A stretch of DNA of 64,000 bases from a virus: positions 1 through 64,000 of IMG/VR virus record IMGVR_UViG_3300045912_000789; one strand, written 5' to 3'. Made by a program: the position numbers and the translations under genes. Below, piece after piece: positions 22,748 through 63,971 of the stretch (position 1 is the first letter of the stretch; each line of letters begins with the position of its first letter). Below the pieces are notes generated by a model, which ran no database searches, was not told the origin of the DNA, and saw nothing but the letters and a program-made list of their open reading frames with translations.

Positions 22748-22854
22748 AAAAAGACGCGGCGCCGGTGCACCGGCACCCCAGGTTTCCCCAGAGTACCAGT
22801 GCACCGGCGGGCGCGGAGGAGAGAACACACGAAGGAGGGGCGGCTCCCCACCAC
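22748..22854 (-). ncRNA. Candidate small RNA / attenuator leader
   Basis: Begins just after a class A motif; CU-rich segment; 22-bp hairpin 22761-22808 with GAAA loop and five G-U pairs valid only on this strand; U5 tract. Confidence 0.55.
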
Positions 22855-60343: not shown

Positions 60344-60400
60344 GCAAAGAGCTGGGGAGAGCCCCGGGCCGGCGCCCGGGGATCCCCAGAGGTGCTCACA
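60339..60400. terminator. Long hairpin at a convergent junction
   Basis: TGTGAGCA..CTGGGGA..CCCCGGGC-CGGC-GCCCGGGG-a-TCCCCAG..TGCTCACA. Confidence 0.65.
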
Positions 60401-60791
60401 GACCGGGCAAGACCACCTGAATCCAGGTGTCCAGGACCGCCTTGTCGACCGGCTTGGGGAACCACGGCTCGAAGCCGTCGATCGCCCCTCCCTCGCGCCC
60501 CGACATCACGGCGACCGGGAGCCCGGCTTCCTTGGCCTCGCGGTAGACGCGCTCGCCGGCATTGTCGCGCGGGAACTGCTCGTCTTCGCGGAACGGGAAC
60601 TGCCAGTCCGTGAGGACCGCGCCGATCTCACACTTCACCCCGATGAACTCGGCGCCCTCGCGGATGATGCGCACGGCCGTGACCATCGTGGTCGCGCGCA
60701 CCACCTGCACCTTGTGGAGTCCGAGGAGGCGGGTGATGGCGCGAGCCACGTGATCATCGTCTTCGACGAGCAGGATGCACTTCTTGGTCAT
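60396..60791 (-). CDS. Stand-alone response regulator receiver (CheY-like) protein
   Basis: ILLVEDD, VLTDWQFP (phospho-Asp), VMSG and FPKPV. Confidence 0.85.
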   Translation of the reverse strand: MTKKCILLVEDDDHVARAITRLLGLHKVQVVRATTMVTAVRIIREGAEFIGVKCEIGAVLTDWQFPFREDEQFPRDNAGERVYREAKEAGLPVAVMSGREGGAIDGFEPWFPKPVDKAVLDTWIQVVLPGL

Positions 60792-60811
60792 GTGTTCGGA
60801 TTCTCCTTCTA

Positions 60812-60822
60812 CTGCTCATAGG
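60812..60822 (-). promoter_or_regulatory. Class A motif CCTATGAGCAG inside a ~15-bp IR covering the RBS
   Basis: - strand reads GTGTCGGATTCC-CCTATGAGCAGTAGA-AGGAGAATCCGAACAC-ATG. Confidence 0.7.
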
Positions 60823-60838
60823 GGAATCCGACACGATC

Positions 60839-61441
60839 TCAGCGCTTCTGCCGGGCCTTCCAGTCGAGCCAGTTCTCCCCGTTCGGGCCCCACGGGTCGG
60901 TCTGGGCGTAGGCGCTCAGCTCGTGCTCGGCGTCACGGTAGACGTCACCGCGGCGCATCACCGCCGTGAGCATGTTCATGAGCTGCGAGAGGCCGCCGGA
61001 GAACCACAGCCCGAGGAAGAGGCCGACCGCGAGGCCCCAGTCCCCAGTGACCGGTCCGACGATCAGCATCGTGACGAGGCCCACGAGGAACATCCAGGCC
61101 ATGCGATCCTCCGACTGCCGGACGTGCACGTGCTCGTGCTGCTGCGTTCGGGTCATCGGGGCGCCGAGCGGGGCACGGGCGTTCGGCTGGTAGGCGATGG
61201 CACGGCACAGCGTGGTCGAGTAGCGCCAGAGCGGGATCAGCGCGCGGGTACCATCGGGGAGCTTCGGGACCCACGGCAACTTCCGGGGCTTCACGACCCA
61301 GTCGCGGAACACTGCGGTGAGCACGAGCGTGGGCTCCCAGCGGAAGTCCTTCACCGCGCCGATGCAGAACAGCAGAGCGAGCCAGCCCCAGCCGACGATC
61401 ACGCCGAACGGAGCAGTGAGGGCGAACAGCACGTAGTTCAT
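60839..61441 (-). CDS. Membrane protein with an HExxH motif (putative metallopeptidase)
   Basis: QHEHVHVRQ...EHELSAY; TM helices; GAGGA SD. Confidence 0.6.
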   Translation of the reverse strand: MNYVLFALTAPFGVIVGWGWLALLFCIGAVKDFRWEPTLVLTAVFRDWVVKPRKLPWVPKLPDGTRALIPLWRYSTTLCRAIAYQPNARAPLGAPMTRTQQHEHVHVRQSEDRMAWMFLVGLVTMLIVGPVTGDWGLAVGLFLGLWFSGGLSQLMNMLTAVMRRGDVYRDAEHELSAYAQTDPWGPNGENWLDWKARQKR

Positions 61442-61466
61442 GAGATCCTCTTTCTCGAAGGGTAGC

Positions 61467-61513
61467 AAAAAATAGCGAGAGGGGCGGGGCCCTCACGGAC
61501 CCCACCCCACCTC
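61467..61513 (-). terminator. Rho-independent terminator
   Basis: GGGGTGGGGTCC-GTGA-GGGCCCCGCCCC followed by TATTTTTT. Confidence 0.8.
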
Positions 61514-61762
61514 TTAGGACTCGATCGGCTCGACCTCAGCGGCGTGCTGCATGAGCCGGGTGTACAGGGCTGACTCTCGGTCCTCCAGACCCGCCAGGCT
61601 CACACCGATCTTCTGCGCGAACTCCTTCAGTTGAGGGAGGGTCATCTTGCGCAGCTTGTCGGCGTCGATCACGACCTCCATCCCCGGCGGGAGCGGCTCC
61701 ACACCGGGGATGGGCTGGATCGGCTTGCGTTCCCAGGCGGTCGGCCGGGAGGACGTCAGCCG
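61514..61762 (-). CDS. Rho-N/SAP-like domain, probably the -1 frameshift extension of the upstream gene
   Basis: LRKMTLPQLKEFAQKIGV..L; no good SD/start; in the -1 frame after GGGAAAC. Confidence 0.6.
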   Translation of the reverse strand, partial: RLTSSRPTAWERKPIQPIPGVEPLPPGMEVVIDADKLRKMTLPQLKEFAQKIGVSLAGLEDRESALYTRLMQHAAEVEPIES

Positions 61763-61768
61763 TTTCCC
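61723..61768 (-). other. Putative programmed -1 ribosomal frameshift signal
   Basis: G_GGA_AAC (61768-61762) in the correct phase, one codon before the stop; stem-loop starts 6 nt downstream. Confidence 0.6.
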
Positions 61769-62214
61769 AGCAGCTCGACCTTGATGTCCATGTCCTCGGC
61801 GTTCGCCTTCACCTTCGGGTCGGTGAAGATCTGGACGACGAGGAGGTCGTGGATCTTGCGCTGGAGCGCGATGCTCGTGTCGAGCTTCTCGCCCACCTCC
61901 TTCAGGAGCGCGCGGTCCGCCGCGGTCATGCCGCCGCCCCCGCCGCTCTCGGCCTTGCCGCCCTCGGCCTTGCTGACGGCGTCCTTCTTGCCGCCGCCCG
62001 AGGCCTTCGTCTCGGTCGCCGGGGCGCCCTCGCCCTGGTGCTTCATGATGATCGCGACGCGGTCCTCGGTGCTGAGCGGCATGTAGTCGGGCGACGCCAT
62101 GCCGAGCGCGCGGAGCGCGTCCGTGACCTGCTTGCGCTGCGCGGCGTCCTGGCTGTTGCCCAGCTCGATCCACTTCTCGCGCGACTTCGGCTCGATTCCG
62201 TTCGGGAGTGCCAT
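61756..62214 (-). CDS. Hypothetical protein (152 aa) with a G/A/K linker
   Basis: GAGGAG SD before ATG 62214. Confidence 0.75.
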   Translation of the reverse strand: MALPNGIEPKSREKWIELGNSQDAAQRKQVTDALRALGMASPDYMPLSTEDRVAIIMKHQGEGAPATETKASGGGKKDAVSKAEGGKAESGGGGGMTAADRALLKEVGEKLDTSIALQRKIHDLLVVQIFTDPKVKANAEDMDIKVELLGNG

Positions 62215-62227
62215 CTGTTCTATCTCC

Positions 62228-62560
62228 TCACTGTTTCCGGTTGCTGTGGTCGAAGATGATCGGGTTTCCGAGAGCGCACTCCGTGACCTGGACATCAGTA
62301 CACTGGAAGCACGCCCTAAGATCTCGTGTCTTGGCGGGACAGGCTTGGACGAGAGGCTCCACCTGCTTGAAGTTCTCGTCGATGAACGTCATGATCTTCA
62401 GTCGGATCTTGTCGACCTGCCGTTCAGGGAGGTCGATCTCTTCACCGAGGATGATCTTGGTGAGGACCTCGCGGCCGAGTCCTCTGTGTGCGTTGAGGTT
62501 GTTCTCCTGAGCGAGCAGCAGTAGCTCGCTGGCGTTCATCTCGTCAAGGAGATCCAGCAT
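62228..62560 (-). CDS. Rho-N-like plus Cys-cluster protein
   Basis: LDEMNASELLLLA..L..GR..L; CP..CFQC..C; GGAGG SD. Confidence 0.65.
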   Translation of the reverse strand: MLDLLDEMNASELLLLAQENNLNAHRGLGREVLTKIILGEEIDLPERQVDKIRLKIMTFIDENFKQVEPLVQACPAKTRDLRACFQCTDVQVTECALGNPIIFDHSNRKQ

Positions 62561-62798
62561 CGGAACCTCCCGTCGAGACGAACTTCACGGAGAAGCGGCT
62601 GTGCGGGCAGATCTTGCACCGGCTGCCGAAGTACTGGCTGAGGCAGAGAGCCCGCAGGACGACGGTACGCTTGCCCTTCTCCACGCGGAAGAAGTGGCCC
62701 TCGGCCTTGAAGACCGAGCCCCGTGCGTAGCACACGGCGTAGCGCGGATCGTCGGCCTTGTCCTTGTTCAGCGTGACCAGTTCGGTCGCCTTGCTCAT
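62544..62798 (-). CDS. Small zinc-binding protein
   Basis: ATGA coupling; C..C..CKICPH. Confidence 0.6.
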   Translation of the reverse strand: MSKATELVTLNKDKADDPRYAVCYARGSVFKAEGHFFRVEKGKRTVVLRALCLSQYFGSRCKICPHSRFSVKFVSTGGSDAGSP

Positions 62799-63391
62799 TC
62801 GTAGACCTTGTAGACGAGTACGATGCGGGGATCCAGACGATCTTCCCGCTTCTTGATAGCGACGTCGAGGTGCGCGGAATCGTCGATCCCGGTGCCCTTG
62901 ACGACGGCGTCTTCGATCAGCTTGATGTAGTTGCTGCCGTCCTTCTTCTGGTAGGGGGATCGGGGCTGGGGTTTCGCTGCCTTCTTCCCGGCCTTCGGCT
63001 TCTTCGGGACCGTCATGCTCCCGCCGACCTGCCACGCCCGGTTCAGGAGATCCTCCATGTAGAGCCAGATCGTGAGGTCAATGTGCCCCCCTTGCTTATA
63101 GACGGCATCCACCACGTGCTTCCACGCGATGGGCTGGGTGCCGAGCGCCGCAGCGGTGGCCGCCTTCAGCTTGTCCTCGAAGTTCCGGCCCTCCGCGGTC
63201 AGGAAGCGGTTCCCGACCCCTGAGTAGGCCTTGTTGATCGAGACCGGGCGGGGATCGCGGAGCACGGCCCAGAACTCGGTCGCCTGCACCCGCTGAGCTT
63301 CGTAGGCGCCGATGATCGACTTCTCGCGCTCCACCATCTCGACGTGGCGCCTGTTGTCGTCACCGGCGAAGAGGCCGAGCTGATCACCCAT
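62795..63391 (-). CDS. rusA: RusA-like Holliday junction resolvase
   Basis: PVSINKAY..DGSNYIKLIEDA..GIDDS..K..PR motifs. Confidence 0.75.
   Translation of the reverse strand: MGDQLGLFAGDDNRRHVEMVEREKSIIGAYEAQRVQATEFWAVLRDPRPVSINKAYSGVGNRFLTAEGRNFEDKLKAATAAALGTQPIAWKHVVDAVYKQGGHIDLTIWLYMEDLLNRAWQVGGSMTVPKKPKAGKKAAKPQPRSPYQKKDGSNYIKLIEDAVVKGTGIDDSAHLDVAIKKREDRLDPRIVLVYKVYE
63092..63102 (-). promoter_or_regulatory. Possible internal class A motif TCTATAAGCAA
   Basis: One mismatch to consensus; uses TAT and CAA codons that are rare in this genome. Confidence 0.4.
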
Positions 63392-63971
63392 CGTCCTTGC
63401 TCCCCTTCGACGGCGCGGCGCGCTCGAACTGCCCGCCGCTGCCCAGCGGCTGGCGGCGGACCTGGTCCTTCCGCCGGTTCTGGATGGTGTGATCTCGCAT
63501 CGACTGGTTGAACTCCAGCTCCCGCAACGCGATGATCCGGGAGAGCGCCTCGGCCTGCTTGCTGTAGACCTTGTAGTGCGCCTCCAGGATCTCCTTCATC
63601 GCGAAGAGCTTGAGCACCTCCATCTCGTAGTCGATCCGGATCGGATCCTCGCGGACCATCGCCGGCACCTCGGCCTTCGGCACGTCCCTCGCGAAGAGCT
63701 TGAGCTTCAGCTTCGCGTCGAGCTGCTTCAGGCTGGTGTTGGCGGCGCGGTAGGCGATCTCGGCCTTCACCAGCTCACCGTTCACGTATTGCGCGTGCGC
63801 GGTGTACTGGCTGTAGAGGTTGCCGAGTTGGTTGTTCGGCAGTTCGCTGATGTCCATGTCGGCGAGGTTCTCGGGAACGTTCGTCGGCTTCGGGTAGGGC
63901 AGCAGGCCGAGCCGGGCCGCCTGGTTCCCCACCTCAGCGAGGAGATCGTCGGCGTTCTTGAACTGCTCCAT
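63384..63971 (-). CDS. UvsY-like recombination mediator (helical)
   Basis: All-helical; Y..EL..AE..L..V..DP pattern; next to the resolvase; AAGGAGG SD. Confidence 0.5.
   Translation of the reverse strand: MEQFKNADDLLAEVGNQAARLGLLPYPKPTNVPENLADMDISELPNNQLGNLYSQYTAHAQYVNGELVKAEIAYRAANTSLKQLDAKLKLKLFARDVPKAEVPAMVREDPIRIDYEMEVLKLFAMKEILEAHYKVYSKQAEALSRIIALRELEFNQSMRDHTIQNRRKDQVRRQPLGSGGQFERAAPSKGSKDDG

Follow-up and report, generated by a model that had tools for sequence, protein, structure and literature searches.

Genome and gene organization

The stretch of DNA analysed here (the window) is the first 64 kb (64,000 bp) of a 171,909-bp viral record in IMG/VR (IMGVR_UViG_3300045912_000789), which is rated complete and has a G+C content of 66-67%. 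The gene of interest, ORF1, is located on the minus strand (62214..61756), starts with ATG 62214, is preceded by GAGGAG 9 nt 5' of this ATG, and encodes 152 amino acids from translation. Its last codons are GAG CTG CTG GGA AAC GGC TGA (protein end ...VELLGNG). They contain the slippery heptamer G_GGA_AAC (61768..61762, minus strand) in the exact X_XXY_YYZ phase of the zero frame, and the zero-frame stop TGA (61758..61756, minus strand) follows one codon past the heptamer. The original prediction of a programmed -1 frameshift was built on this in-phase heptamer at the end of a 152-aa gene, and the same arrangement was read here on the minus strand.

The -1 frame starts at the last C of the heptamer (CGG CTG ACG...) and is open for 82 codons followed by TAA (61516..61514). 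This extension (61762..61514, minus strand; RLTSSRPTAW...EVEPIES) would, if joined to ORF1 residues 1-151, give a trans-frame product of 233 amino acids. An intrinsic-terminator-like hairpin with a T-run (61496..61465, minus strand) is located directly 3' of the stop codon of the extension, and the frame is thus open for 82 more codons up to a terminator, as had been stated. Since the terminator lies 3' of the extension and not of ORF1, the transcription unit would close after the extension. Direct reading revealed terminator-like GC hairpins with T-runs 3' of the extension also in the related loci L001, L003, L004 and L007 (see below). By itself, an open frame of 82 codons is unremarkable, with a chance of about 16% at 67% GC according to our estimate.

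In the genome of the window phage GGA makes up 13.5% of the Gly codons, CTG and TTG together 41% of the Leu codons, and AAC 95.5% of the Asn codons; with this usage Leu-Gly-Asn is expected to be spelled as G_GGA_AAC about 5% of the time. The sequence GGGAAAC occurs three times on both strands of the 172-kb genome, where we estimate about 20 copies from base composition. The only other copy within the window (22782-22788, minus strand) is located in a non-coding region without a convincing gene. A crude scan of the whole genome for in-phase heptameric slip sites turned up no tail-chaperone-like case, and no tRNA gene was identified in the 172-kb genome with ARAGORN.

Gene neighbourhood

The gene order p195 - RusA - orf89 - 110-aa gene - ORF1 - extension is kept in all loci compared. 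ORF1 had been placed in a RusA/UvsY-like recombination cluster. The RusA neighbour matches Pfam PF05866 with 26.9 bits (cutoff 22.8) and this part of the assignment stands, but the UvsY-like label of the 195-aa neighbour found no support in Pfam or PHROGs. The description of the candidate as a frameshift in a non-tail gene agrees with this conserved block of non-tail genes, which includes RusA. A membrane protein and a CheY-like gene are located 3' of the extension, in an order that varies between loci. Within the block 60396-63971 ORF1 evolves fastest, with 31-59% identity; the 110-aa gene is 57-72% identical and orf89 70-74%.

The gene directly upstream of ORF1 (62228..62560, minus strand; 110 aa) is syntenic in all loci and encodes an HeH-like N-terminus followed by a Cys-x8-Cys-x2-Cys-x7-Cys part. 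BLASTP of the 110-aa protein gave matches to P0043 (57% over 96 aa) and P0023 (75% over 60 aa). In both of these (296 and 229 aa, respectively) the 110-aa part is fused in frame to an ORF1-like part that ends in LGNE or LLGNS. Because of these in-frame fusions, a Rosetta-stone link, the 110-aa protein and ORF1 very probably work together.

Assembly check and occurrence in metagenomes

Near-identical DNA to positions 61450-62300 was detected in metagenome runs of 15 studies, from hot spring and microbial mat, the probable source of the window phage, and from sludge, biofilm, soil and groundwater; judging from these matches, the window phage or very close kin is widespread. Contigs of the Logan collection from three other studies (soil, groundwater and sludge) cover 61686..61890 and 61593..62299 and contain no indel at the slip site. 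In addition, five loci that were assembled independently from different samples have the same two-frame layout. The same picture could arise at one locus from an indel introduced in assembly or sequencing, or from the recent breakage of a gene whose true form is a single frame of 233 codons; given the shared layout, the three further studies and the ends of the family proteins (in 77 of 99 within 0-4 residues of GN or GK, none of them fused), this explanation can be given next to no weight. The concern that reads might reveal a sequencing indel, raised with the original prediction, was thereby removed.

A diverged soil contig differs from the window just around the heptamer: two coordinated substitutions turn TGA into TAG, CTG is replaced by TTG, and the heptamer itself is untouched. 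At position 61939 contigs of three runs contain an extra CCG, which adds one more Gly codon to the GGGGG run of the disordered linker of ORF1 and represents a length polymorphism. In the RNA metatranscriptome run X20 a contig covers 62166..62299, together with a doubtful piece at 61879..61915; the slip site lies outside both.

Conservation in divergent loci

The comparison at the DNA level included five distinct loci, namely the window, L001/L002 (150- and 172-kb viral contigs, ORF1 49% identical to that of the window), L003 (177 kb, 42%), L004 (a 5.6-kb metagenome contig, 59%) and L007 (a 74-kb viral contig, 31%), plus the one diverged Logan contig. The viral-contig collection contains only four related records besides that of the window. 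Scans of it with remote subfamilies and single proteins, the membrane-protein neighbour, the extension profile and the upstream-gene profile gave no new record. The single scan of metagenome contigs yielded one new locus (L004) and one repeat, and profile scans of genome contigs with the ORF1 and extension profiles gave no match. Neither was a match obtained by tblastn of P0001, P0044, P0030 and P0052 against the GenBank phages; by these searches, no cultured phage in the GenBank collection carries the ORF1 family.

The exact GGGAAAC is found in the same phase in all five loci and in the diverged Logan contig. The zero-frame stop lies one codon past the heptamer in each of the five (TGA in the window, L001 and L003; TAG in L004 and L007), and the open -1 frame measures 69-80 codons in the other four, compared with 82 in the window. 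The same SAP/HeH-like domain is encoded in the extension of all five. Conservation of the heptamer and of the two-ORF arrangement in homologues, named as a check on the original prediction, therefore holds for every divergent locus with DNA. The sequence CTGGGAAACG is invariant across the four closer loci, and the flanking codons vary synonymously (the preceding Leu is CTG or CTC). That five loci share heptamer, stop position, open -1 frame and -1-frame protein sequence exceeds what would be expected by chance.

The C-termini of the wider family were used to extend the comparison. The 13 close homologues of ORF1 (137-153 aa) end in L-L-G-N-[G/D/A], one of them in L-G-N-D, and none is part of a fusion of any kind. 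A profile search with ORF1 retrieved 88 cluster representatives among 1.84 billion. The C-terminus x-G-[N/K] plus 0-4 residues is present in 77 of 99 family sequences, with N in 73 of the 99, and the GN/GK ending persists in sequences whose C-termini cannot otherwise be aligned. G is preceded by E, L, S, A, P, K, G, T, R, M, V or Q, each of which has an NNG codon; D, N, H, C, F, Y and I do not occur at this position. Two members end in EGKG and EGKE, which would fit G_GGA_AAG. This x-G-N pattern at the C-terminus is what a conserved slip site predicts, and is indirect evidence of one. The wider family was judged by protein C-termini; L007 is the sole remote member that was read at the DNA level, and it fits.

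In-frame fusions of ORF1 and extension in relatives, which had been named as a further sign to look for, were found neither among the 88 representatives nor in a search for longer proteins with the extension profile, the latter being weak evidence by the tool's own statement.

Coding constraint in the -1 frame

The first part of the extension is a Pro-rich linker (61682..61762, minus strand; RLTSSRPTAWERKPIQPIPGVEPLPPG), which lies 5' of the first ATG of the -1 frame. In the 24-25 codons before this ATG the window and L004 differ at 25 positions, distributed over codon positions 1/2/3 as 5/3/17; of the codon changes, 13 are synonymous and 7 non-synonymous. For L001 and L004 the corresponding numbers are 7/5/16, with 13 synonymous and 9 non-synonymous changes. 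The excess at third positions together with the synonymous majority is the signature of a translated -1 frame. The extensions align end to end, with RL invariant at the junction and GVxPLP invariant 5' of any plausible start. Going by the substitution pattern, the -1 frame is under coding constraint from the slip site onwards. Translation of the downstream ORF solely from ATG 61681 had been named as a finding that would speak against the frameshift; the constraint was found 5' of that ATG.

A reading in which two separate genes are present would have a small SAP-domain protein of 55-62 aa initiated at ATG 61681 or GTG 61702, with GN as a motif at the protein level and the heptamer incidental. 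Gene callers do annotate stand-alone proteins of 51-67 aa at the extension in all relatives. At the alignment column of ATG 61681 Met is found in about half of the relatives, and others have Met within four residues; in many relatives Met or another start codon is placed 3-7 residues before the SAP-like core. However, the -1-frame protein is constrained from the slip site on, already 5' of every candidate start. In L003, L004 and L007 no ATG, GTG or TTG is present in the -1 frame from the nearest upstream -1 stop to codon +19 to +26, a stretch that takes in the invariant RL...GVxPLP and leaves these loci without a start codon in the constrained region. The first ATG of L003 is located inside the SAP-like core and resulted in the call of a 39-aa protein (P0125). 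The window and L001 have GTG at the Val of GVEPLP. No Shine-Dalgarno-like sequence at normal spacing precedes the internal ATG 61681 (upstream ...CTCCCGCCGGGG), which agrees with the earlier statement that the extension lacks a good Shine-Dalgarno of its own, and the AUG is contained in a hairpin of -32 kcal/mol. Two separate genes would also leave unexplained that GGA, a minor Gly codon, is yet used in every locus, and that the stop always comes right after the heptamer. We consider this reading improbable. Independent initiation at an internal start may nevertheless occur as an additional route.

The fusion could also be produced by transcriptional slippage of the host or phage RNA polymerase, or by a shift elsewhere in the overlap. 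Upstream, most loci have an open -1 frame of 66-153 codons, and there the point of the shift cannot be fixed from sequence alone. The nearest upstream -1 stop is found 109 codons before the heptamer in L003 and 66 codons before it in L007, but only 15 codons before it in L004, which narrows the place of the frame change. Within these 15 codons the heptamer is the only invariant element. No homopolymer of at least 6 nt is present near the site, and the G3 and A3 runs are far below the lengths established for polymerase slippage (PMC5009743). Such other routes to the fusion were therefore regarded as very improbable.

RNA structure downstream of the slip site

Stimulators of frameshifting are common, but not obligatory. 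A stem-loop 6 nt 3' of the heptamer (61755..61728, minus strand) had been proposed as such an element. It can form, with -11.8 kcal/mol, but folds no better than shuffled sequences (z = 0.10; 101 of 200 shuffles fold as well). The proximal 46-nt stretches of the five loci are also at chance level (z from -0.30 to +0.89), RNAalifold gave no supported consensus for the proximal region (-6 kcal/mol with a covariation penalty), and most of the 3' arm of the stem-loop is changed in the diverged contig. Thus the possibility of the fold was confirmed, and its conservation as a stimulator was not. A shared Shine-Dalgarno-like sequence 5' of the heptamer was absent from the loci compared by direct reading.

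Further downstream, about 47-50 nt 3' of the heptamer, a distal hairpin of 16 bp was identified (61713..61678, minus strand), the 3' arm of which holds the internal AUG (61681..61679). It was found in the window (-32 kcal/mol, z -5.0), L001 (-35.3 kcal/mol, z -7.1) and L004 (-21.4 kcal/mol, z -2.1). One of its pairs is U-G, A-U and G-C in these three loci, and both of its bases occupy synonymous third positions. A hairpin of 13 bp is located elsewhere in L003, and L007 has no equivalent of the distal hairpin. The simplest idea for the role of the distal hairpin is masking of the internal start.

Predicted protein domains

The AlphaFold model of ORF1 (mean pLDDT 80) begins with a four-helix domain predicted with confidence (residues 1-60), followed by a disordered linker rich in Gly, Lys, Ala and Ser (61-97) and a long C-terminal helix (98-141). 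The slip site is encoded within the unstructured tail of this model. No significant match of ORF1 was found in Pfam, PHROGs, Foldseek (PDB and BFVD) or the ESM Atlas.

The C-terminal part of the extension contains a core with helices at extension residues 34-38, 42-51 and 63-76 (61535..61666, minus strand), modelled with pLDDT 75-82, that resembles SAP/HeH (Rho_N-like) domains. In Pfam the extension scored 18.1 bits with SAP (PF02037; E = 0.0021, cutoff 23.9) and 15.7 bits with Rho_N (PF07498; E = 0.015, cutoff 24.9), and for the relative P0116 a precomputed PF02037 match exists. A profile of 21 extension sequences matched only Rho in the PDB (E = 0.46). Foldseek of the extension model against the PDB listed SAP or Rho N-terminal domains in 7 of the first ten rows, every one with E > 1; local matches of the core have an rmsd of 1.3-2.6 Å over 40-50 residues, and the SAP neighbours listed are Tho1, MKL1, Hcc-1, DEK and Ku70. 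The two-helix spacing of SAP domains (L..M.L..LK..A...G) is shared by the extension, which differs in its third helix following the two, in scores below the Pfam gathering thresholds and in Foldseek E values above 1. The resemblance is thus weak, with the best structural neighbours mostly SAP or Rho, and it agrees with the Rho-N/SAP-like nucleic-acid-binding domain originally proposed. From sequence comparison and modelling, the core of the extension is likely SAP-like.

Proposed mechanism and role

The arrangement is explained best by a conserved programmed -1 frameshift at G_GGA_AAC that gives 152- and 233-residue forms of the protein, which we regard as highly probable from the comparative evidence. 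Most ribosomes would read ORF1 to the TGA and produce the 152-residue protein. A minority would slip back by one base while the P site holds GGA and the A site AAC; the Gly and Asn tRNAs would re-pair with GGG and AAA, and decoding would go on in the -1 frame (CGG CUG ACG...). The resulting long form of 233 residues would consist of ORF1 residues 1-151, the Pro-rich linker and the putative nucleic-acid-binding SAP/helix-extended-helix domain. The efficiency of frameshifting is probably low, since no conserved stimulator was found. The slippage itself and its efficiency are inferred, as are binding of nucleic acids by the tail and a biological function. One protein would therefore be made in two forms at a fixed ratio, one untethered and the other tethered to DNA or RNA. 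This protein probably acts, with its 110-aa partner encoded upstream, in a programme of replication/recombination or of genome organisation.

A more extensive reading combines these observations and is, as a whole, rather unlikely. According to it, an ancient, family-wide switch operates in a two-part module of large uncultured phages (the 110-aa HeH/Cys protein and ORF1), and the ratio of free to SAP-tethered ORF1 sets the anchoring of a disordered, Lys/Gly-rich, histone-like scaffold to the phage DNA. The distal hairpin, which buries the AUG and has compensatory synonymous changes, would then be a new kind of element that might enforce expression as a fusion only, or affect frameshifting at an unusual distance.

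Comparison with known frameshift systems

G_GGA_AAC is a documented -1 site, which Caulobacter phage Colossus uses for its tail chaperone (PMC3556154) and which also serves the haloarchaeal virus HCTV-1 (PMC5009743); it is frequent among IS1 and IS3 elements, despite its low efficiency in Escherichia coli (PMC4066793). The closest analogue in logic, by comparison of the arrangements, is the G/GT tail chaperone. In lambda G/GT (G_GGA_AAG), the frameshift of which occurs at a low level, and in Colossus (GGGAAAC), as proposed for ORF1, the -1 shift takes place at G_GGA_AAN towards the 3' end of a phage gene that is short (PMC5009743, PMC3556154). In the lambda G/GT type, and by prediction in ORF1, a short major form has the entire N-terminal protein in common with a minor form extended at the C-terminus, and both are conserved over wide divergence, with no strong stimulator obvious at ORF1.

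The likeness is limited to this logic. Among the frameshifts annotated by SEA-PHAGES, 2397 of 2476 are in tail chaperones (PMC10885494). Unlike these, ORF1 is mostly helical with a disordered linker, has no tail-chaperone match in Pfam or PHROGs, and is located in the RusA block instead of between the tail tube and tape-measure genes; its extension is an 82-residue linker plus SAP-like domain and not a T domain. An assignment of ORF1 as a tail chaperone of the G/GT type was accordingly rejected on sequence, fold (no significant match) and position.

The OrfA-OrfB arrangement of IS3 and IS1 elements also joins two modules by a bacterial -1 frameshift, with G_GGA_AAC in use (PMC4066793). In the IS elements the frameshift, usually with a downstream structure, joins a catalytic domain to a DNA-binding part that precedes it, whereas in ORF1 the putative nucleic-acid-binding module is the added part, no conserved proximal structure is present, and there is no homology to transposases.

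The proposed mechanism is classical -1 frameshifting by tandem slippage; new would be its occurrence in this gene family and phage group. The ORF1 case sits in a conserved non-structural block of widespread uncultured phages of 74 to 177 kb, the hosts of which are presumably bacterial, and these phages would use G_GGA_AAC without an evident stimulator. The 233-aa form is missing from every database searched because gene callers split it into a 152-aa protein and a hypothetical protein of 51-67 aa. The C-terminal x-G-N-stop signature offers a simple handle to find and correctly annotate the whole family, and the pair of short and long forms gives a concrete point from which to approach the function of the ORF1 family.

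Other members of the family

The members without a GN terminus (P0025, P0027, P0032, P0039, P0060, P0073 and P0078) have mostly long acidic Glu/Asp tails, and may represent a natural control group without frameshifting. In P0050, P0062, P0083 and P0092 (256-288 aa) the N-terminal helical domain of ORF1 is found at the C-terminus; P0062, P0083 and P0092 begin with a Zn-ribbon-like CxKCGGS motif.
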